64,000 nt of DNA, taken from contig RDOB01000007.1 of assembly GCA_011364965.1 (NCBI GenBank), forward strand, positions 62,335-126,334, written 5' to 3'. Under the pieces are notes generated by a model. It worked only from the letters and a program-made list of their open reading frames with translations, was not told where the DNA came from and searched no databases. The position numbers and the translations under genes are program-made. Positions 4,182 through 45,900 of the stretch are shown here, in pieces (position 1 is the first letter of the stretch; each line of letters starts with the position of its first letter). Origin of the DNA: Candidatus Heimdallarchaeota archaeon. GTDB taxonomy: Archaea; Asgardarchaeota; Heimdallarchaeia; Hodarchaeales; Hodarchaeaceae.

Positions 4182-4673
4182 ATACTGTTTCGTACTCTGT
4201 AGCTAAAAGTGCTTCTTCTAGTAAAACGATTCAATGAAGATCTCTCAAAGTATATATAAAATATAAGAAGGATAAAAGACTCCAAATCGAGTTAGACTAT
4301 CCTATCACTGCCAGACTTCCCATAAAAATTGTCCAGCCAATGTAATTCAGATTTTTTGAATATTGATATATTTTCGTTGTCCCAAGACCCAGATTATATG
4401 CAAAGGAATATAATGCAAGCATTATGATAATTAATCCGATTGTAGAAGCCGTTAAGCCAGGAATAAATAAAATCCCGTACGTTGCTGGAACAAATAAGCT
4501 GATAACAAATCCTTCCATAAGCTAAACTACAGCTGGAACCATAATTTTTTTTGAGCTAATAATTCAGGGTCTTCAAATGGTTTTCTTCGCTTTCTATCAG
4601 CCCATAGCCATAAAGGATACGTTATAGCATAACCTGCAATATAAAATAACCAGAGGTTAATAATATTTACCAT
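4137..4673 (-). pseudogene. Degraded ICMT/PEMT-family membrane methyltransferase
   Basis: Read from ATG at 4673 through a homopolymer frameshift and three in-frame stops, it gives GLGTTKIYQYSKNLNYIGW...LLEEALLATEY...EEY..TPRYL, the ICMT/PEMT signature. The 4297-4518 ORF is an internal fragment. Confidence 0.65.
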
Positions 4674-4705
4674 TCCTAAACATCCAGGGTTTTTTAGCTG
4701 AATTA

Positions 4706-5179
4706 TTATACGCTATAATTCTTAAGAATATCATCAGCCCAGGCGTTTGCTCGTTCCAATTCCCCCTCTTTCAACGGGCCTTTTCGTCCTTTAACAAAAA
4801 ATGCTTCTGGTGATATTATTAGTCTTCCATTCTTTTTCCTCAAATTATCAGCAATTTTTCCAGCAGCATAGCCGAAGATTTTGACTAATCTTGTAGATAA
4901 TCTCGTATCGAACGCAGCAACATTTATATCTTTCATACTAGCCTCTGGAATTTGGTTAAGAAAGTCTTGTATCGCTTCTGTAGGACTGCCTCCATGCGTT
5001 GGTGAACCAATTATTAATAGCTTCAATCCAATTAACTCTGAAAGATTTACACTGTTTACTCGAACTATTTTAGTGTCCATTTGGATCTTTATGGCATTTC
5101 TAATTGCTTTAGCTATTTCTTCTGTATTTCCATAAACTGAATCATAAATTATCATCGCTTGCATCAGGATATACCTCAT
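4706..5179 (-). CDS. Flavodoxin-family protein
   Basis: IYDSVYGNTE, IIGSPTHGG and AAFDTR motifs. Confidence 0.9.
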   Translation of the reverse strand: MRYILMQAMIIYDSVYGNTEEIAKAIRNAIKIQMDTKIVRVNSVNLSELIGLKLLIIGSPTHGGSPTEAIQDFLNQIPEASMKDINVAAFDTRLSTRLVKIFGYAAGKIADNLRKKNGRLIISPEAFFVKGRKGPLKEGELERANAWADDILKNYSV

Positions 5180-35833: not shown

Positions 35834-36778
35834 ATGAGCTCACTTAAAATAGCCATTGGAAGCATCTTGCTAAGAAATCCGTTGATTCTCACAGCTGGAA
35901 TTCTTGGAACAACTTTTTCAAGTTTAAATCGGTGTTATGCTGCTGGATTTGGCGCGGTTACAACTAAATCTATAGGAATAGAACCAAGAGAGGGATATGC
36001 AAATCCATCAGTCATTTATATACCTGAGATTGATTCAATTATCAATGCAGTAGGATTAGCTAATCCCGGATATATTACTTACGGGCAGGAATTGAAAAAA
36101 ATTGATTCTGAAGTGAAGTACATAATGTCAATTTTCGGATCAACCCCTGATGAATTTCAATTAATCATTAAATATATTCAATCACGAAATTTAGTCAATC
36201 CACCTAAAGCATTTGAACTTAATCTAAGCTGTCCTCATGCAACCAAAGGAGGTATCTCTGTTGGAACAGATCCTGAAATTGTATATGAAATTGTCAAAGG
36301 AGCAACATCAGTAAGTAGAATACCAATATGGATTAAATTAACACCCAATATAACCGATATAAAATCAATCGCAGACGCAGGGGTTAGGGGTGGAGCAACT
36401 GGCATTGTAGCAATTAATACAGTAAAAGCAATGTTAATCGATATTACAACAAAAAAGCCGATCTTGGCTAATATTCGTGGTGGATTGTCTGGACGAGCAA
36501 TTAAACCAATAGGAATTCACGCAATTTATGATTTATATGAATATCTAGGAGCTAAAACACCTCTTATTGGAACTGGAGGAATATGGAACTGGCAAGACAT
36601 CATTGAATATATTCTTGCAGGTGCAACAGCTGTAGGAATGGGTTCCTTGCTTTTTAACTATAATAATTTAGAGTTGAGTGTAAATAAGCTCATTACGGGG
36701 ATAAAGAAATATCTCGAGACTCAAGACATGTCCATTTCAGAAATTAGGGGGCTTGCGCATGAACACGCACAAATTTGA
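35834..36778 (+). CDS. pyrD: Dihydroorotate dehydrogenase family 1B catalytic subunit
   Basis: TTKS, NAVGLANPG, ELNLSCPH, KLTPN, GGLSG. Confidence 0.95.
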   Translation: MSSLKIAIGSILLRNPLILTAGILGTTFSSLNRCYAAGFGAVTTKSIGIEPREGYANPSVIYIPEIDSIINAVGLANPGYITYGQELKKIDSEVKYIMSIFGSTPDEFQLIIKYIQSRNLVNPPKAFELNLSCPHATKGGISVGTDPEIVYEIVKGATSVSRIPIWIKLTPNITDIKSIADAGVRGGATGIVAINTVKAMLIDITTKKPILANIRGGLSGRAIKPIGIHAIYDLYEYLGAKTPLIGTGGIWNWQDIIEYILAGATAVGMGSLLFNYNNLELSVNKLITGIKKYLETQDMSISEIRGLAHEHAQI

Positions 36779-37604
36779 TCTACCTCTTGTATTACCCGTT
36801 GCTTTTCTAAAATTTGAGACTAAAACTCAAGCAACAATTACTCTTGAAGTGGTAATCCCAAAGCAGTACTCTCTTTCTATTCAACCTGGGCAATATTTTA
36901 TGCTCTGGTTACCCCAGATAGACGAAATTCCAATTTCAGTAAGCAATTTTGAGAAGAATCGACTTGCATTCACAATCTGTTCCAAAGGATACACCTCAAA
37001 ACAAATGATGACTATGCAAAAGGGTGATTTATTAGGATTACGAGGACCTTTTGGGAAGGGATTTGAAATCCATCCCGAAAATGTAGCTATTATCGTCGCA
37101 GGAGGAATGGGGATCACACCACTTCGGTACTTGATCTATAATTTATTGAAGATAAAAACTAAGCAAATCATTTTGCTGCAAGGGGCAAAAACTGCATCTG
37201 AATTATATTTTCAGGAAGAATTAAAATATCTCGATATTAAGACGTTTTTCTATACTGATGATGGATCCTATGGACAGAAAGGATTTCCTACACAGAAGTT
37301 GCTAGCTCTATTAAATAACACTCAAAATCACAACGAACTAGCACTATATGGTTGCGGCCCAGAAATCATGCTGAAACAGATCCTAGAAATCGCTAAAACT
37401 AATCATATACAGCATCAAGTCCAACTAAGTTTGGCGGATAGATATATCAGATGTGGATATGGAATCTGTGGATCTTGTTATCTGGACGATATTGGTTTGA
37501 GTGTATGTCATGATGGGCCAGTATTTCGTGGTGATATCCTTGAACAAATTAAAGATTTTGGGAACTTTGGCCGAAAAGCTGATGGATCAAAATATAAACT
37601 TTAG
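36753..37604 (+). CDS. pyrK: Dihydroorotate dehydrogenase electron transfer subunit
   Basis: RGPFGKGF, GGMGITP, CGP, CGYGICGSC 2Fe-2S motif. Confidence 0.93.
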   Translation: MRMNTHKFDLPLVLPVAFLKFETKTQATITLEVVIPKQYSLSIQPGQYFMLWLPQIDEIPISVSNFEKNRLAFTICSKGYTSKQMMTMQKGDLLGLRGPFGKGFEIHPENVAIIVAGGMGITPLRYLIYNLLKIKTKQIILLQGAKTASELYFQEELKYLDIKTFFYTDDGSYGQKGFPTQKLLALLNNTQNHNELALYGCGPEIMLKQILEIAKTNHIQHQVQLSLADRYIRCGYGICGSCYLDDIGLSVCHDGPVFRGDILEQIKDFGNFGRKADGSKYKL

Positions 37605-37614
37605 GAGATAAGAA

Positions 37615-38391
37615 ATGGACTTTCTTGGACAATTGAATTACAGTAAAAAACAAACAAACAGTCAAATTTGCGTTGGACTAGATCTTGCGGAGTATGGGAC
37701 AAGATCTCATAATACACTAAAAGAAGGAGAAAAGAAATCAGAAAAACTTATTGATTTGGTTGATAAACTAGCTCCATACTGTATTGCGTTTAAAATTAAT
37801 CGCCAATATATTTTAGATATCAGTATGAAAGAAATTCAGGGTATAACAAAACAAATTCATCAACTTGGAAGGCCAGTGATTATTGATCATAAGATCTCAG
37901 ATATTGGGTCTACAAATCAACAAGCTATATTTTATTTCCAACGAGAAGGATTTGACGCATTTACTGCTAGTCCATTTCCTGGAAACGTCAAAGAAATCTG
38001 CGAAACAGGACATAAATACGGATTAGCCTCAATAATATTAGTACTTATGTCCAATCCAGAAGCAATATGGATGAAAACCACTCAAACTGCTGAGGGGCTA
38101 CTGATGTACCAATTCCTTAGTCAAGAAGCAAAAAGGTATGCAGACGGGCTGGTTGTAGGTTCAACGAACTACATTGAAGAGGATGATTTACGATATATTG
38201 CAGATACCAATAAGGGTCAAATAATTTTAACTCCTGGAATCGGCGCTCAGGGAGGAAAATTAAAGCAAGTCTTAACACTTTTCCAAGATAAAGTGATTTT
38301 CAATGTTGGACGAGCTATCATTTATAACGATGATCCTGTAACCTGTTTACAGCAATATAATGATCAAGTGAATTGCCTCATTGGGAAATAA
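37615..38391 (+). CDS. pyrF: Orotidine 5'-phosphate decarboxylase
   Basis: CVGLD, DHKISDIG, TPGIGAQGG, VGRAI. Confidence 0.93.
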   Translation: MDFLGQLNYSKKQTNSQICVGLDLAEYGTRSHNTLKEGEKKSEKLIDLVDKLAPYCIAFKINRQYILDISMKEIQGITKQIHQLGRPVIIDHKISDIGSTNQQAIFYFQREGFDAFTASPFPGNVKEICETGHKYGLASIILVLMSNPEAIWMKTTQTAEGLLMYQFLSQEAKRYADGLVVGSTNYIEEDDLRYIADTNKGQIILTPGIGAQGGKLKQVLTLFQDKVIFNVGRAIIYNDDPVTCLQQYNDQVNCLIGK

Positions 38392-39631
38392 ATTGAGACT
38401 TGTAAATGGGAGAATCTGGGTAAAACGAAAATTAATAGAAGGAGACATTGTTATTGACGAAGATCAGGGTATTATTACGTATCTAGGAAAAGATTCCCAT
38501 CATATTACCTACGAAGCTCCTTATGATCTTAAAGGCAAAATTGTTGTCCCTAGTTTGATTGATATTCATTGCCATTTAAGAGACTTTCAAGAGAGTCACA
38601 AAGAGACATTTGAAAGCGGAGCGAATGCAGCAGCCGCAGGAGGATACACTCATCTATTCGATATGCCAAATAAGTTCCCTCCAGTGAATTCAAAGATAAT
38701 GGTTGAAAAAATCTCTGATAAAATAAAGAAAATCTCTTCATGTATTATTACTCCATATATTCTACTGAATTCTAAAACTGAACGACCCTTAATTTATGAA
38801 TATCCCTACATTAAAGCATATATGGGATATACAACAGGAAATTGCCTTACAACGCAAGAAGAGTTAAAAGAATTTCTTTTGAAATCAAGCACATTTCTTT
38901 CTATTCATTGTGAAGATAATGAAACTATAGCGAATAACAAAAAAAGATTTAAAGATTCCTTGGAAAACCATTGCGAAATTAGAGGTTCAGAAACCGAGCT
39001 GAGATCACTAGAAAAGGTCAAGTGGCTTCTTAATGATTTAAACCTCCAAAAACACCCACATATAGCCCACGTGACTTTAGAAAAATCAATAAAACTCATA
39101 TCTAAGCTAAATTTAACATTTGAGGTCACACCACATCATTTATTATTAAATACAGACGATTATAAAAAATTGGGAATATGGGGGAAGATGAATCCTCCAT
39201 TACGTCCAAAGGAAGATCAATTGAAGCTTTTAAAACTCTTTTTGGAAGGTTTTATTCCAGTAATCGCAACAGATCACGCACCTCATACGATGGTAGAAAA
39301 GGAGGTACAACAGCTTAGTGGGGTACCAGGATTGGAAACTTCATTATCAACAATACTAAACACACTTCAACCACTCACCCCCGAGAAAATTAATCTGATT
39401 GTAGAAGCATTTTCATTGAATCCCCGCAAATTAATGAATATCAATAGTACTAGTAAACTACAACAAGGTGAGGTAGCAGATTTAACTATAATTGATCCTA
39501 ACCTGAAAACCAATGTAAAAGGAGAATTATTACATACTAAATGCAAGTGGAGTCCCTGGGAAGGCCAAGAATTACAGGGTTGGCCAGTTATGACAATTCA
39601 TAATGGAATAATAACTCATTCAATTATCTGA
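38381..39631 (+). CDS. pyrC: Dihydroorotase
   Basis: DIHCHLR, DMPN, EVTPHHL, NPPLR, ATDHAPH. Confidence 0.93.
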   Translation: MGNKLRLVNGRIWVKRKLIEGDIVIDEDQGIITYLGKDSHHITYEAPYDLKGKIVVPSLIDIHCHLRDFQESHKETFESGANAAAAGGYTHLFDMPNKFPPVNSKIMVEKISDKIKKISSCIITPYILLNSKTERPLIYEYPYIKAYMGYTTGNCLTTQEELKEFLLKSSTFLSIHCEDNETIANNKKRFKDSLENHCEIRGSETELRSLEKVKWLLNDLNLQKHPHIAHVTLEKSIKLISKLNLTFEVTPHHLLLNTDDYKKLGIWGKMNPPLRPKEDQLKLLKLFLEGFIPVIATDHAPHTMVEKEVQQLSGVPGLETSLSTILNTLQPLTPEKINLIVEAFSLNPRKLMNINSTSKLQQGEVADLTIIDPNLKTNVKGELLHTKCKWSPWEGQELQGWPVMTIHNGIITHSII

Positions 39632-39639
39632 CAAAATAG

Positions 39640-40215
39640 ATGAAAAAAATGAAAAAATTACCAATGGAACAAAAGAGACGTTTTGTAAACCTCCTAAAAG
39701 AAGTTGAAATTATAAAATATGGTAATTTTATCTTAAAAGATGGGTCAGAATCAAGTGTGTACATTGATCTGCGTATTCTCCCAAATTTTCCTGCGATTTT
39801 TAAGGAAATTATTAAGATAACAGCTCAATATTTCATACAAACGAGATTAGTAGAGACATTTGATGGAATTATTACCCCTCCCTTAGCAGGAATACCTTTG
39901 GGGGTTGCATTAGCCCAAGAACTGAATAAAGCGTTTTATCTAGCAAGAGAAAAACCAAAAAACCACGGCCAACGAAAATTAATAGAAGGGGAAATCGCCT
40001 CTAAACGTATATTAGTAATAGACGATGTAATTACTTCAGGTAGTAGCAAAATAGGGATTTTTAAGGCGATAAAAGAACATAATGGACAACTTGTAGGATT
40101 ATTTGTATTTATAAATCGGATGACTTCCCCTAAAAGATTGGATGAAATATTAAAAGAGTATGGAATCCAATTCTTCTCTCTTCTATCTCTAAATGATCTA
40201 TTGTTACAGGAATAA
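39640..40215 (+). CDS. pyrE: Orotate phosphoribosyltransferase
   Basis: YIDLR, REKPKNHG, VIDDVITSGSS. Confidence 0.93.
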   Translation: MKKMKKLPMEQKRRFVNLLKEVEIIKYGNFILKDGSESSVYIDLRILPNFPAIFKEIIKITAQYFIQTRLVETFDGIITPPLAGIPLGVALAQELNKAFYLAREKPKNHGQRKLIEGEIASKRILVIDDVITSGSSKIGIFKAIKEHNGQLVGLFVFINRMTSPKRLDEILKEYGIQFFSLLSLNDLLLQE

Positions 40216-41023: not shown

Positions 41024-41431
41024 TCAAGCTTCCTCCCATGCCCAAACACCTACTTTTCGCCAACGGCAATACGCCCAAATCCAGGTTTGAATCATCAGAG
41101 CTGCATCGTAAGCAGTGAAAGAGAAATGCCAGTCTTTTTGTGGTCTTAAATAGCAAATTTCAGTATGGCCATATTCATCGGTACCATACACATGGTGAGT
41201 CTTCGCAGCTATTCGTGGTTTTGTAATCCAGGCCCTAGGAGGAGCGGTAGGATAGTTATGGGGAAATTCAATCAAGACATGAAAAGTACCACAGGCAAAG
41301 CTTCCAGTAGTGACATATTTCACCTTTACACAGATATTACCGTTTTCTAAACGATAAAAATCATCCCGAGTTAACCCAGGAAATACTCCTTGTAATTCAT
41401 GTAGTTCCTGTTCAACTGTACGATCATACAT
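41024..41431 (-). CDS. Prokaryotic-type E2/UBC-fold protein (copy 2)
   Basis: FPHNYPTAPP, HHVY...EICYL...DW, WIWAYCRW...GVW. Confidence 0.8.
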   Translation of the reverse strand: MYDRTVEQELHELQGVFPGLTRDDFYRLENGNICVKVKYVTTGSFACGTFHVLIEFPHNYPTAPPRAWITKPRIAAKTHHVYGTDEYGHTEICYLRPQKDWHFSFTAYDAALMIQTWIWAYCRWRKVGVWAWEEA

Positions 41432-41448
41432 TTTGATTCATCCAATTT

Positions 41449-41904
41449 TTATAGAAAATGGTTCCAGAATCCTGCTTCTGGAAAACCCCAAGAACCCGTT
41501 TTTGTCCAGCGACAGTATGTTTTGAGCCAAACCTCAACCATTTTTGCAGTTTCATACGAAGTATAGGATAAATGCCAGTCTTTTTTGGGACGTAAGTAGC
41601 ATATGAGGGCATGGCCTTCTTTATCCCATTCATACACATGAGGTGTTTTTTCGGGGATTTTAGGTTTTTGTACCCAAACCTTAGGAGCATTAATAGGATA
41701 ATTATATGGGTATTCAATAAGAACGTCAAAATAACCACATGCATATTTACCTGTGGTAATAAAGCTAATTTGAACGCAGTAATTACCATTTGCCAATTGC
41801 TGAAAGTCCTGCTCCTTAACACTGGGAAAAAGCTTTTGCAAGGGTTTCAATTCCCGATCTGAAATTCTTTGGCGTAATGACAAGTTTGAAGCTCCATAGC
41901 TCAT
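41449..41904 (-). CDS. Prokaryotic-type E2/UBC-fold protein (copy 1)
   Basis: YPYNYPINAP, PHVY...LICYL...DW, WLKTYCRW.KTGSW. Confidence 0.8.
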   Translation of the reverse strand: MSYGASNLSLRQRISDRELKPLQKLFPSVKEQDFQQLANGNYCVQISFITTGKYACGYFDVLIEYPYNYPINAPKVWVQKPKIPEKTPHVYEWDKEGHALICYLRPKKDWHLSYTSYETAKMVEVWLKTYCRWTKTGSWGFPEAGFWNHFL

Positions 41905-43163
41905 TAATCAGGATTGTTAATATCTGAAGAGAAATTAGGAACTGACGATGTGCTGTGAAAAGGACAGGTAGGATCAGTGGTCAAATCCTCATAATAATAA
42001 AGCTCAAGACCATCATACTTAATGGCAGTTTGATCTGAAGTTTTGATAGTACGATTATACCACATATAGAAGTTGTAAGGAAAATGATACAATCCATGGG
42101 GAATTCCTGTTAAAAGTAAATCCAAACAGAATTTTGCTAATAGTAAGGTTAAGTTATCCACATCTAATCCCAATCCTGGTTGGGCAAGCTGTTCTTGCAA
42201 AGTGCGGTCGTATGTAATTTTGTGTTCTAATTCGATAGTGGTCGGTATAGAGCTAGAACCAGTCTCAGGTTTGGCATAGACACAATGATAACAATAATCT
42301 CCTTTCCGCGGGTCAACCTTAAACATTAAACCTCCTTTTACTCCAGCAAATGTTCCTGCATATACTAGGGGAATGGCTAATTGATTGGTATGAACGAAAT
42401 CATTGATCGCATAATTGACATCGTGCTCTCCAGAAACAGCAGCGATTAAATCTATTCCTTGGAGTGACTCAAGGAAGAAATCAAAGTCTTTTTTGGTATG
42501 TAAAACGAACTTCTGTTCTATAGTTTCAATTTGAACATCAGGAATTCGAGCTAGGATATAATCTTTCACTGCTCGAGTTTTAAAGCGACCAAGTTGGGAC
42601 AGATCGCAAATATGACGAATAATATTGTGAGTCTCAAGCAAATCGTCGTCGATAAAGATAAAGTTTTTCACTCCAGACTTAGCAAGATATAATGCTAAAA
42701 GCGATCCTCCAGACCCCATACCAATGATAGCTACTTTTTTCTTCTTCAACTCTCCTAAGGGTGTTTCTTTTTGATCAATTCGGACAAATAAGCGATCTAA
42801 ATTCACAAATTCGAATTCAACTTCAGTATTACCTTCTGAGAGATAAAACCTGAATTTAAGATTGATAAAATCTTTAGTACTAGTTGCATGAAGAAAAGGA
42901 AAATTAAAAATCGATTGAAGCTTAGAAACATCAAGAGGAGAGTCCTCTAAAGTTAAGACACCGATCGATTGGGGAGATTGGACAGTAGTCAAGCCAGTAA
43001 CATGATAGAGAGTATAATCATCAAAATATCGGCCAGAAAGCCACAATGTTGAACTTTTAGCAATCTGTTTTCTTTTAACTTGATAATCATGTTTAAATGA
43101 CGGATAAACTAGAATTTTAAGAGGTTTAGCAAAGGTCAATTCAACCCCTCCATTATTTTCCAT
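41904..43163 (-). CDS. ThiF/E1-like adenylyltransferase with an extra N-terminal domain
   Basis: VAIIGMGSGGS, IDDDLLETHNIIRH, GRFKT, CYHC and CPFH Zn ligands. Confidence 0.88.
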   Translation of the reverse strand: MENNGGVELTFAKPLKILVYPSFKHDYQVKRKQIAKSSTLWLSGRYFDDYTLYHVTGLTTVQSPQSIGVLTLEDSPLDVSKLQSIFNFPFLHATSTKDFINLKFRFYLSEGNTEVEFEFVNLDRLFVRIDQKETPLGELKKKKVAIIGMGSGGSLLALYLAKSGVKNFIFIDDDLLETHNIIRHICDLSQLGRFKTRAVKDYILARIPDVQIETIEQKFVLHTKKDFDFFLESLQGIDLIAAVSGEHDVNYAINDFVHTNQLAIPLVYAGTFAGVKGGLMFKVDPRKGDYCYHCVYAKPETGSSSIPTTIELEHKITYDRTLQEQLAQPGLGLDVDNLTLLLAKFCLDLLLTGIPHGLYHFPYNFYMWYNRTIKTSDQTAIKYDGLELYYYEDLTTDPTCPFHSTSSVPNFSSDINNPD

Positions 43164-44101
43164 AAAGGTTCGGATAATAATTCCAAAACTTCACCTTCAA
43201 GAGAAGCTTTGAGTGAAAGTAAAAATGGATGGAGTAAATCCGGGTCTACCAGTAAATTTGCCGGATGTTTTTCAACAGTAAAGTTCCGAGACATATCAGA
43301 AGATGAGATATCTATGTATAATTGACCCTCAGGAAAATTAGACGGAAAAGAAAGAAGAACCAAAACATTCACAGAAAGTTCACTCCCCTCAACGATAATA
43401 GTAAATTTATAGGGGAATGAGATAATTTTTTCTCCCCGAGTAGATCCAGGAAACTCCTGAATGTCGTTTAAAGTAAAAGTAGTGTCAAATACTTCAATTA
43501 AAGCTTCTTTTATGGGAAGAAGTTGTTCAGGTAAGATTCCTATCGGTTTTAGCGGGGAAATCTCCATACCCGCGGACATAATTCTGATATTCGACACAGG
43601 AATCCGTAATGTTTCAAAATTAGCACTACTAGGTTCCGTTGCCAAAGCTTGGTCTCTTCGATATAATTCAATGATTACTTCAGGATCTGAATCTGGAAGA
43701 AAATCCACTATTAGGGCAAGAATTAGGTTCCTATGAGGATTCAACATAAAAAAATCACTAATTTCCCCATGATCCCTATGACTGGGCCCTCCATATCCAA
43801 GATGTTTGTGCCAATTCCCTAAATATAGTGTTGTTTCTTGTTCTAGGAGCTGTTTTGCATATTCGGGATCAATTTCGAAATACATATGTTCTCGAACAGC
43901 AAGATTGTCGGGTGGTATTTCCATCCTCTCAATGCAGATATCTAATCCCCCATTAATATTTCGAATGGTTCCAAATAGCATTCCTCCAGTTTCCCTTCCT
44001 ACCCATTTGGTTGCTTCTTCAATAATCTGGTCATAGATATCTTGACTTAAATATAGAAAAATACTGTCCTCTGGTTCAGGAAACATCAAAACTACCCTCA
44101 T
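43136..44101 (-). CDS. JAB/MPN+ metallopeptidase fused to an RWD/UEV-like domain
   Basis: ETGGMLFG and WHKHLGYGGPSHRD JAMM motif; C-terminal SFPSNFPEG E2-fold-like motif with no Cys. Confidence 0.85.
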   Translation of the reverse strand: MRVVLMFPEPEDSIFLYLSQDIYDQIIEEATKWVGRETGGMLFGTIRNINGGLDICIERMEIPPDNLAVREHMYFEIDPEYAKQLLEQETTLYLGNWHKHLGYGGPSHRDHGEISDFFMLNPHRNLILALIVDFLPDSDPEVIIELYRRDQALATEPSSANFETLRIPVSNIRIMSAGMEISPLKPIGILPEQLLPIKEALIEVFDTTFTLNDIQEFPGSTRGEKIISFPYKFTIIVEGSELSVNVLVLLSFPSNFPEGQLYIDISSSDMSRNFTVEKHPANLLVDPDLLHPFLLSLKASLEGEVLELLSEPLWKIMEGLN

Positions 44102-44139
44102 TGGTCTAGAGTGTATATCAAGGAAAGATAAGAAAGAAT

Positions 44140-44241
44140 CTAGTAATGCTTTGAGATTGGAACTGTATCTACATTCTTTTCAGCATCTTCAGTCGCATTT
44201 TCTTTTGTTTCAGTATCTACGCGTTTAACAGGTCGAGGCAT
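44140..44241 (-). CDS. 33-aa peptide MPRPVKRVDTETKENATEDAEKNVDTVPISKHY heading the JAB-E1-E2-E2 operon
   Basis: Read manually: ATG at 44241, TAG at 44142-44140, AGGAG SD 9 nt upstream, TATA-like TTTAATAAA near 44287-44295; below the ORF-track size cutoff. Confidence 0.65.
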   Translation of the reverse strand: MPRPVKRVDTETKENATEDAEKNVDTVPISKHY

Positions 44242-44393
44242 ACTTTTACACTCCTAAAAATTGCAGGTATACAAAAAAATTCTGAATTTATTAAACTTTA
44301 GATATGAGACGAGGTGATTGCAGAGAAATGAACGCAAAGGCCTCCATAATTTCAGCAGTTATGAGAAAAATGTTTCTAACGAGAGAAAAAAGT

Positions 44394-45900
44394 TTATACC
44401 AGCTTCTTGCGACTTCTGTAATTTAGAAGGATTATAAGAAGAATAAATATTAGAAGAAACAATATTCCCTCCAAAAAATAGAGAGGTTCCTCCGAGAAAG
44501 GAGGAATGATTGTAGGGGAACAAGAACAAAGGAAGAAAATATTTATACACGGAAAAGAATAAGAATTTTGAGCTTCTCCAGGAATTTGATAAGCAGAATC
44601 TATAATTCCATCATTATTATTATCAATTGCGATCCAGTCATCCCAGTAATTGCAATAAAAAGAGTTATTAGTACCATCATCATATCCCTGAACAGGGTTA
44701 CTCAAAAAAGCGTAGAAACAGATTATATTATTACTAGAAAGAGAATCAATAAATTTACCTGGATCAGTACTATTGACAATAATATTATCAGAAATTAGGT
44801 TTACGCTAGAGGAACGTAAAATTATCCCTTCATTCTTACTTGTATTAACAATGTTCTCTCTTAAAAGGCATTCATTAGAATTTAAGAGTTGAATACCCCT
44901 ATAAGTACACAAGAGAGAATTATAGGTGACATTGATTTGCGTGCAAAATAGAATCGTGACACCATAAGAATTACACAAACTCTGATTTGTAATTGCGATA
45001 TTCACACAATTTAATAGGACAATCTGCCCCATATTGGGTGGAACAGAAAGATTAGCTTACTCCAGCCAGAAAATGATTAGCTGACCATTAAAATAATTAT
45101 GACAAACTTCAAGCTGACGAATAAAGGAAAGATCGGAACCTAAGATCATAAATCCACTCTGAAGGAACTTATTATTCCGAATCGTATTATTTGCTGAAAG
45201 TGAAAGATAAAGCCCTAAAATGTCATTAAAAAGAAATGAATTGTTAGTAATCAAGTTATAATGGCATACTAGAAGGTTAAAACAACAATTACCACACCCT
45301 GATATTGTATTATTGATAAAAGAAAGATTAGATGCTAAGGTGGCACTTACACCAATATAAAAAGCCTCAGAAACTAAATTATCCATAATAGTAATATTAT
45401 ATCAAGGTCTTAGCTCAATCCCTACAAAACATTCAATGAAAGAATTATTGCAAATCAACGAATTATTGACCCCAATAAGGTTCACATCAGTGCTACTATA
45501 AGAGAGATCAAAATAATTAGAAGAAAGTCCACCATGAGTGCAATTCGCAAGATAGACCCCAGGATGTTCTCCAAAATAACACTGGAAGAAGTGAAAATAG
45601 ATATCCACATTCACCAAGGTTATCATATTGCCAGAACCGTCTGAAAAAGTTCAATCCTGAATAAGAATAGGAGCTTTAGCAGAACCATTACCTTACCAGC
45701 CTTCAATTTGCGCCATGGATATGAAATAATCATTACCATTGATAAATATGGTAGAATGAACTTGATAGGAAGAGGAGGAAGATTGAGTAAGGGTAGATCT
45801 TTTTAAAAAAGGAAAATATTGAGTTGAGAACGCTGAAGAATGGATAAGAGATAAAAAAAATGACAAGAACGAGAAAACAAGAGATATAGAAACGTTTCAT
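44394..45900 (-). pseudogene. Fragmented NosD/parallel beta-helix surface protein
   Basis: Consecutive fragments (44394-45032, 45057-45386, 45402-45626) with GI.L..S..N.I..N repeats, NYWDDW...DNNNDG and a C-terminal TM; a signal-peptide-like start at 45900; broken by stops and frameshifts. Confidence 0.75.

Follow-up and report, generated by a model that had tools for sequence, protein, structure and literature searches.

To our knowledge, the modifiers of E1/E2 cascades are beta-grasp proteins, except in CBASS-type systems, where the tail of a complete enzyme takes their place. Tags without the beta-grasp fold occur in the form of Pup and UBact, which are small, charged and probably disordered, and whose genes are located beside those of ligation and deligation enzymes. 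In CBASS, Cap2 binds only the disordered last seven residues of its substrate and then adenylates the substrate, which in E. cloacae has Phe-Ala as its last two residues; Cap3 cuts exactly after the last residue, and the E1 cysteine of Cap2 is dispensable in vitro (10.1101/2022.03.31.486616). In the Bub system, an E1 without the cysteine uses a tyrosine, and the Bub JAB processes the precursor, exposing a reactive C terminus (PMC11601596).

The window, by which we mean the whole 64,000-nucleotide stretch of Hodarchaeales DNA that was analyzed, carries an operon in which a small ORF is followed by genes for a JAB peptidase, an E1-like enzyme and two E2-like proteins (Table 1). The enzymes are new members of known families. 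Based on the sequences of the operon and its relatives, we propose, with somewhat better than even confidence, that the product of the small ORF is a free-standing peptide modifier that lacks the beta-grasp fold. It would be a "tail-only" analogue of ubiquitin, which the JAB protein would trim, the E1 would adenylate and the E2 cysteine would carry.

Table 1. Coordinates of the operon and its signals in the window
Feature	Position	Strand	Description
TATA-box-like element	44287..44301	-	Block kept in 12 same-genus loci; putative promoter
Shine-Dalgarno-like AGGAG	44251..44255	-	9 nt before ATG; read from sequence
Small ORF	44140..44241	-	33 residues; candidate peptide modifier; M-P-R start, K-H-Y end
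Spacer between small ORF and JAB gene	44090..44139	-	Short, T-rich; GAGGG ribosome-binding site for JAB at 44099-44095
JAMM/JAB metallopeptidase	43136..44101	-	321 residues; extra C-terminal alpha/beta domain; Pfam Prok-JAB, PADLOC JAB models
E1-like adenylating enzyme	41904..43163	-	419 residues; MPN-like N-terminal domain without metal ligands, then ThiF domain
E2-like protein a	41449..41904	-	151 residues; PADLOC E2 7.5e-9; predicted catalytic cysteine Cys102
E2-like protein b	41024..41431	-	135 residues; paralogue of a; PADLOC E2 1.5e-9; predicted catalytic cysteine

The small ORF starts with an ATG at 44241 and stops with a TAG at 44142-44140 on the minus strand. Chance alone produces many ORFs of this size in this DNA (117 with 25 or more amino acids in 12 kb), and the authenticity of this one was therefore judged by comparative evidence. 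The ORF was in frame at all 12 assessable orthologous loci, including the window, with 33 to 35 codons and one TTG start; G017, whose locus is cut by a contig end, was left out of this count. Pairwise differences among the 12 orthologues gave a pS of 0.62 and a pN of 0.05 (pN/pS, 0.08), and Ser30 was encoded by TCN as well as AGC codons, thereby indicating selection on the protein and not on an RNA or DNA element. A search of Rfam at the small ORF returned nothing meaningful. Judged from these alignments, the small ORF is a genuine gene under strong purifying selection.

The earlier note on this DNA had described an AGGAG Shine-Dalgarno sequence and a TATA-like box in front of the small ORF. 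Both are present exactly so, and the signals are kept in 12 loci: in the alignment of the same-genus loci, a block with the consensus TAAAGATTAATAAA, about 46 to 60 nt upstream of the start codon, and a GGAG were conserved at the same spacing. The gap between the small ORF and the JAB gene was 29 to 43 nt at the same-genus loci, with a GAGG-type site in the spacer. Because the upstream block and the GGAG stand at fixed spacing and the spacer to the JAB gene is short, the small ORF is placed as the first cistron, which bears out the claim that it is the first ORF of the operon. The note had also called the peptide uncalled, which was only partly true: the exact peptide and its relatives are present in public collections, where they appear solely as unnamed "hypothetical proteins." The 20 public sequencing runs listed for this DNA are all DNA metagenomes (sediment, soil and mangrove), and none is RNA. 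The spacer (44102-44139, minus strand) and the aligned spacers of 11 relatives are T-rich in all loci. Oligo-T tracts terminate transcription in archaea, and the message for the peptide may therefore outnumber that for the enzymes.

Within the genus, the order peptide-JAB-E1-E2-E2 was unchanged wherever a contig spanned the operon, and the JAB protein was found in 12 of the 21 other species. It was found in none of the 39 genomes of the class outside the genus. Searches of whole genomes with the peptide gave one copy per JAB-bearing genome of the genus where the contig allowed the check, and no significant match in the nine same-genus genomes without the operon or in the 39 other genomes of the class. 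Identity to the window within the genus was 79 to 91% for the peptide, 75 to 81% for E2b, 62 to 74% for E2a, 55 to 63% for E1, and 44 to 51% for JAB. The peptide is the best-conserved product of the operon, above every enzyme.

The flanks of the operon varied between genomes and carried housekeeping genes; among the genomes compared they included genes for a MoxR ATPase, CcmE/CcmF, a prolyl oligopeptidase, DinB and HAD proteins. These neighbors speak neither for nor against an immune role or a conflict with viruses. In the window, co-oriented ORFs on the plus strand (35834-40215) adjoin the operon on its downstream side and are not common to the flanks of the other genomes. By eye, their translations resemble pyrimidine biosynthesis proteins, namely dihydroorotate dehydrogenase with an electron-transfer subunit, OMP decarboxylase, dihydroorotase and orotate phosphoribosyltransferase. 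Two neighboring ORFs (212 and 109 residues; 44394-45386, minus strand) that lie immediately upstream of the operon both match NosD/right-handed beta-helix repeats and look like one surface protein gene that is broken or mis-assembled.

Beyond the genus, a search with a JAB profile recovered full-length relatives at 25 to 36% identity, together with many proteins of about 327 residues that have the JAB domain alone in common (37 to 39% identity), many of them from Nitrososphaeraceae. The earlier note had suggested looking for small ORFs with a conserved C terminus upstream of homologous JAB/ThiF genes, and had regarded related loci with no equivalent small ORF as evidence against its idea. Such ORFs were found across very distant lineages: a small ORF precedes the JAB gene at all 15 Nitrososphaerales loci from a species-genome collection, where it overlaps the JAB gene, and, among metagenome loci, at all 40 whose JAB match reached E 3e-14 or better. 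At weak metagenome matches (E 1e-8 or worse), it was seen at none of six. The Nitrososphaerales loci were found with an alignment-based scan of genome contigs, and a scan with a single JAB protein gave no match. The system was present in 14 of the 201 Nitrososphaeraceae species searched; with this frequency, and with 12 of 21 species in the genus, it is an accessory system.

The loci of the JAB and E1 relatives showed a small gene directly upstream of the JAB gene in several further lineages; the JAB proteins of such distant relatives had an identity of only 24 to 36%. This gene encodes 33 residues in L057, L058, L059/L060 and L061/L062, 52 residues in L065, and 44 residues in L098. The peptide copies in L093 and L094 are cut off at the contig end, and the contigs of L095 to L097 begin too late for the presence of a small ORF to be judged. 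In the high-G+C loci L063/L064, JAB, E1 and E2 were present with no recognizable small ORF in the 540 nt upstream or in the 8-kb locus scanned; the enzymes may therefore work without the peptide there, or the gene may lie elsewhere.

Several relatives showed individual peculiarities. L063 (2913-3995, minus strand, and 4472-5000) holds a divergently transcribed ORF of 360 residues with a C-terminal E2 domain. Twelve residues past its listed start, this ORF has an internal M-P-R-D followed by an acidic stretch, which resembles the start of the peptide and reflects either a fusion or chance. In the metagenomic relative L093 (132-2162), one protein of 676 residues comprises both JAB, C-terminal domain included, and E1; this fusion is still preceded by a small ORF ending in K-H-Y plus a two-residue tail. 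In L065 (7226-7688), from Nitrososphaeraceae, two ORFs (88 and 58 residues) stand in place of the single E2 gene, which is intact at the other loci of this family; the split is probably a frameshift or an assembly error. The E2 of L097 (1887-2756) has 289 residues and a C-terminal extension that looks membrane-spanning, which may hint at membrane-located conjugation in that lineage. Two Nitrososphaeraceae genomes, G493 (C330 and C250) and G502, have two JAB-profile matches each. Both matches in G493 are full-length and lie on separate contigs, and this genome may therefore hold two copies of the system.

Next, we examined the sequences of the peptide family in an alignment of 21 representatives (A7). 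The peptide is 32 to 55 residues long in relatives and 33 in the window. The N terminus was M-P-R in all complete copies but one; the middle varied in length, was acidic and rich in lysine, and contained an invariant Asp. An alignment of 13 sequences showed no variation at Lys6 and Lys13, which were mostly kept in the wider alignment. The C-terminal block was of the V-P-I-S-K-H-Y type, in which the His was invariant and followed by Tyr, Phe or Trp in all 21 sequences. After the aromatic residue, the peptide either stopped or continued for one to eight non-conserved residues, which differed even between close relatives. These tails were none, S, RN or GN in Hodarchaeales, and at least eight different ones were seen in Nitrososphaeraceae. 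As read from the alignment, the conserved His-aromatic end with its disposable tail looks like the pattern of a processed, ubiquitin-like precursor. The variable residues fit the proposal, made when only the window had been read, that the peptide serves as substrate after JAB trimming; the observation that it ends in KHY and not in GG was likewise correct and concerns its key conserved feature. The VDT motif that had been noticed twice in the peptide is not a conserved repeat, since relatives carry VDT and KDT or KET.

The peptide differs from beta-grasp modifiers in two respects. It is too short for the fold, which takes about 70 residues or more, and its end is His plus Tyr, Phe or Trp in place of Gly-Gly or a small residue. 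Its gene is linked to those of an E1, an E2 and a deconjugating peptidase, as for such modifiers, and the E1 is its candidate adenylating enzyme. Searches of the peptide against Pfam, NCBIfam, PADLOC and PDB sequences gave nothing meaningful (the best Pfam match was DUF5633, E 0.064), and a look-up in the ESM Atlas returned an unnamed cluster of 52 residues (0.88), which is a lead only. The conserved operon contained no beta-grasp or other candidate modifier besides the peptide.

The JAB protein matched Pfam Prok-JAB barely at the cut-off (25.3 versus 25 bits), and its metal site, a Glu and H-x-H...S-x-x-D, was invariant in 24 diverse members. The PADLOC models matched by the JAB and E2-like proteins were those for CBASS. 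Its structural model (pLDDT 87) was most similar in VIA-align to Cap3 from a complex with its CD-NTase (9ild_A, Z 14.7), with PfJAMM1 at Z 14.5. The C-terminal alpha/beta domain has no cysteine. It matched an E2 profile at 25% probability in hhalign and reached Z 5.9 to the Tsg101 UEV among unrelated folds in VIA-align, so that the model weakly suggests a likeness to the UEV/E2 fold. The start of the JAB gene is probably the TTG at 44089 or the ATG at 44086 and not the ATG at 44101 (region 44084-44101, minus strand), because the orthologues start at the aligned TTG and the GAGGG would then lie at ribosome-binding distance.

The E1-like enzyme matched Pfam ThiF (4.5e-25) and the PADLOC models of Cap2-type E1-E2 proteins (8.6e-29), and its match to the NCBIfam 6A-MBL model cap2_3 (2.5e-16) was below the cut-off of that model. 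In Foldseek, the top structure was Cap2 with CdnD (7to3_A), followed by Atg7, MccB, UBA5 and BubCD; PaaA was also among the structural matches. Neither the glycine-rich ATP loop nor the acidic and basic residues of the active site varied. The cysteines of a CxxC...CxxH motif are all gone together in one lineage, thereby indicating a structural zinc site, and no E1 cysteine outside this site was conserved across the family. Three invariant tyrosines lie in or adjoin the flexible crossover region. Residues 10 to 121 have an MPN fold (Z 10.4 to 5cw3_B, the BRCC36-partner chain) from which the metal ligands are absent, and the whole E1 model aligned to the JAB-E1 fusion BubCD over both domains. 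This modeled structure suggests a pseudo-JAB-E1 architecture similar to BubCD, with the E1 and the neighboring JAB protein forming an active/inactive MPN pair. For the E2-like proteins, the predicted catalytic cysteine (Cys102 in E2a) and an upstream His were invariant in all 29 sequences, and the orthologues of E2a in relatives matched Pfam PF26395 (E2-CBASS). Relatives outside Hodarchaeales usually have one E2. By sequence, the catalytic residues of JAB, the ATP site of E1 and the E2 cysteine are intact.

These features can be arranged into a putative cascade. The peptide would be made as the first cistron, and JAB would cut tailed precursors after the aromatic residue, exposing its carboxylate; the window peptide already ends at the aromatic residue and would need no trimming. 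The ThiF-domain E1, of the Cap2 type, would then bind the last residues (V-P-I-S-K-H-Y) as an extended strand and use ATP to adenylate the C-terminal carboxylate. From the acyl-adenylate, the peptide would pass to the invariant E2 cysteine, either directly or via a conserved loop tyrosine as in the Bub E1, because no E1 cysteine is conserved outside the zinc site. The E2 would finally move the peptide onto an amino group of target proteins, and JAB would reverse this step. The active JAB protein probably binds to the metal-free MPN-like domain of E1, in the manner of the Rpn8-Rpn11 or BRCC36-Abraxas2 pairs. The strict linkage in the genus, the same arrangement in distant relatives and the lack of any other modifier candidate in the operon argue for this cascade. 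A complex prediction for the E1 dimer with the peptide, made with our own alignments, scored 0.02 and counts neither way. As counterpoints, the role of an E1 substrate alone does not account for the invariant N-terminal M-P-R, and the L063/L064 lineage shows the enzymes without a recognizable small ORF in its 8-kb locus. In addition, we know of no E1 substrate with an aromatic C-terminal residue.

Other roles of the peptide have to be weighed against that of a modifier. The peptide might be a non-covalent subunit or regulator, such as a pseudo-substrate inhibitor, an adaptor or an assembly factor, while the E1 acts on the C terminus of another protein encoded elsewhere. The strict co-occurrence and high conservation would fit any obligate partner, the invariant N terminus suggests a second binding surface, one lineage (L063/L064) has no visible small ORF, and the substrate in CBASS is a full enzyme (10.1101/2022.03.31.486616). 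However, variable extensions past an unchanging His-aromatic pair are not readily accounted for by a non-covalent partner and are typical of C-terminally activated modifiers, and no other gene with a conserved C terminus travels with the operon; we consider this role unlikely. It is highly improbable that the peptide is the acceptor, or donor and acceptor at once in chains through its conserved lysines or N-terminal proline, with E1 and E2 loading something else. Lys6 and Lys13, invariant in the 13 sequences, and the M-P-R of all complete copies but one would suit an acceptor, but the operon encodes no other donor, and a conserved C terminus with a precursor-like tail points to donor chemistry in the peptide itself.

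The two remaining explanations take the peptide out of protein conjugation altogether. The earlier note had offered a RiPP-like precursor as an alternative, of which the E1 would modify the C terminus as MccB and PaaA do, with JAB as maturation protease and a small bioactive compound as the product. ThiF-family enzymes with short peptides as substrates do exist, the structural matches of the E1 include MccB and PaaA, and the peptide is short, co-encoded and the product of the first gene. MccB chemistry needs a C-terminal Asn, whereas the last residue here is aromatic, and the entire peptide is kept across phyla in place of a conserved leader and a variable core. Moreover, the conserved gene set always includes one or two cysteine-bearing E2s, which have no role in known RiPP pathways, and also a JAMM peptidase, and the flanks of the compared genomes have no exporter, immunity or tailoring gene in common. 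The N-terminal domain of the E1 is MPN-like (Z 10.4) and not the peptide clamp of MccB, although a role as a clamp would still be compatible with it. On these grounds we disfavor a RiPP-like precursor and regard it as very unlikely. The small ORF could instead be a regulatory leader (an upstream ORF or arrest peptide): its product would have no function itself, and its role would be to control how the enzyme genes are translated or transcribed. Its place as first cistron, at a distance of 29 to 43 nt to the JAB gene or, in Nitrososphaerales, with an overlap, would allow this, and the T-rich spacer behind it could attenuate archaeal transcription. Leader peptides, however, rarely keep their sequence between phyla, while both ends of this peptide are kept between phyla despite differing DNA, spacer and length, and purifying selection acts on almost every residue with synonymous change saturated; we give a leader hardly any weight.

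In a literature survey that covered few subscription-journal papers, no description was found of a peptide modifier with E1, E2 and JAB or of such an operon type. The family of peptides appears new, as does the concept, drawn from these sequences, of an E1/E2 modifier no larger than a peptide. A fuller claim, which we hold to be evenly balanced, is that this would be the first E1/E2 cascade with a free, disordered ribosomal peptide of about 30 to 50 residues as its modifier, recognized solely by a short His-aromatic C-terminal motif, matured and removed by a JAMM peptidase of its own, and covalently attached to proteins. If true, the dedicated peptide modifier would add a class to the known post-translational tags, E1/E2 tagging would be possible without the beta-grasp fold, and the system would offer a minimal model for C-terminus recognition by E1 enzymes. 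Its hosts are Asgard archaea (Hodarchaeales) and ammonia-oxidizing Nitrososphaeraceae archaea of soil. Because a Lys precedes the His-aromatic pair, trypsin would leave a dipeptide remnant on modified lysines, with expected masses of about +300.12 Da for His-Tyr, +284.13 Da for His-Phe and +323.14 Da for His-Trp. If the proposal holds, protein engineering could also make use of the peptide as a ligatable tag of 33 residues that has a ligase and an eraser of its own.

Among the known systems, the SAMP/UbaA/JAMM1 system and the ubiquitin operons of Caldiarchaeum and Asgard archaea are similar in that they provide archaeal E1-dependent tagging, in which a JAMM protease processes precursors and removes tags. 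In contrast, their modifiers are beta-grasp proteins with a Gly-Gly end, and SAMPylation proceeds without an E2. The MccA/MccB (microcin C7) and PaaP/PaaA systems share a ThiF-fold enzyme that acts on a short ribosomal peptide encoded by the first gene, but E2 and JAB are missing from them, they make antibiotics for export, and MccA is a heptapeptide ending in Asn. Here the end is aromatic, no exporter is conserved nearby, and the E1 carries an MPN-like N-terminal domain. Pup ends in GGQ or GGE and is ligated through the side chain of its C-terminal Glu by the glutamine-synthetase-like PafA, with no E1/E2 cascade, whereas the five conserved genes of this operon include neither PafA nor Dop and encode ThiF, E2 and JAB enzymes.

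The type I Bub system (6E.1; BubCD JAB-E1 and BubAB Ubl-E2) likewise has a JAB/MPN-fold domain at the N terminus of an E1 that lacks a catalytic cysteine. Bub, however, relies on Ubls with the beta-grasp fold, on serine E2s and on a DUF6527 protease, and no Ubl or DUF6527 was found among the Pfam matches of the operon. In the operon described here, the MPN domain of E1 has no metal ligands, the JAB is a separate protein that is predicted to be of the active type, and the E2s carry cysteines. Type II CBASS shares the E1 adenylation domain of Cap2 (PADLOC 8.6e-29; 7to3_A), an E2 of the E2-CBASS type with its cysteine, and a Cap3-like JAMM peptidase. In CBASS and the related Pycsar and 6A-MBL systems, the substrate is also a non-beta-grasp protein recognized by a short disordered C-terminal tail. 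Unlike those systems, the conserved five-gene set contains no nucleotide cyclase, metallo-beta-lactamase or effector gene. In addition, E1 and E2 are separate proteins here, and the E1 has no conserved catalytic cysteine but an MPN-like N-terminal domain. The hosts are archaea, and the presumed substrate is a free peptide of 32 to 55 residues that ends in His and an aromatic residue.
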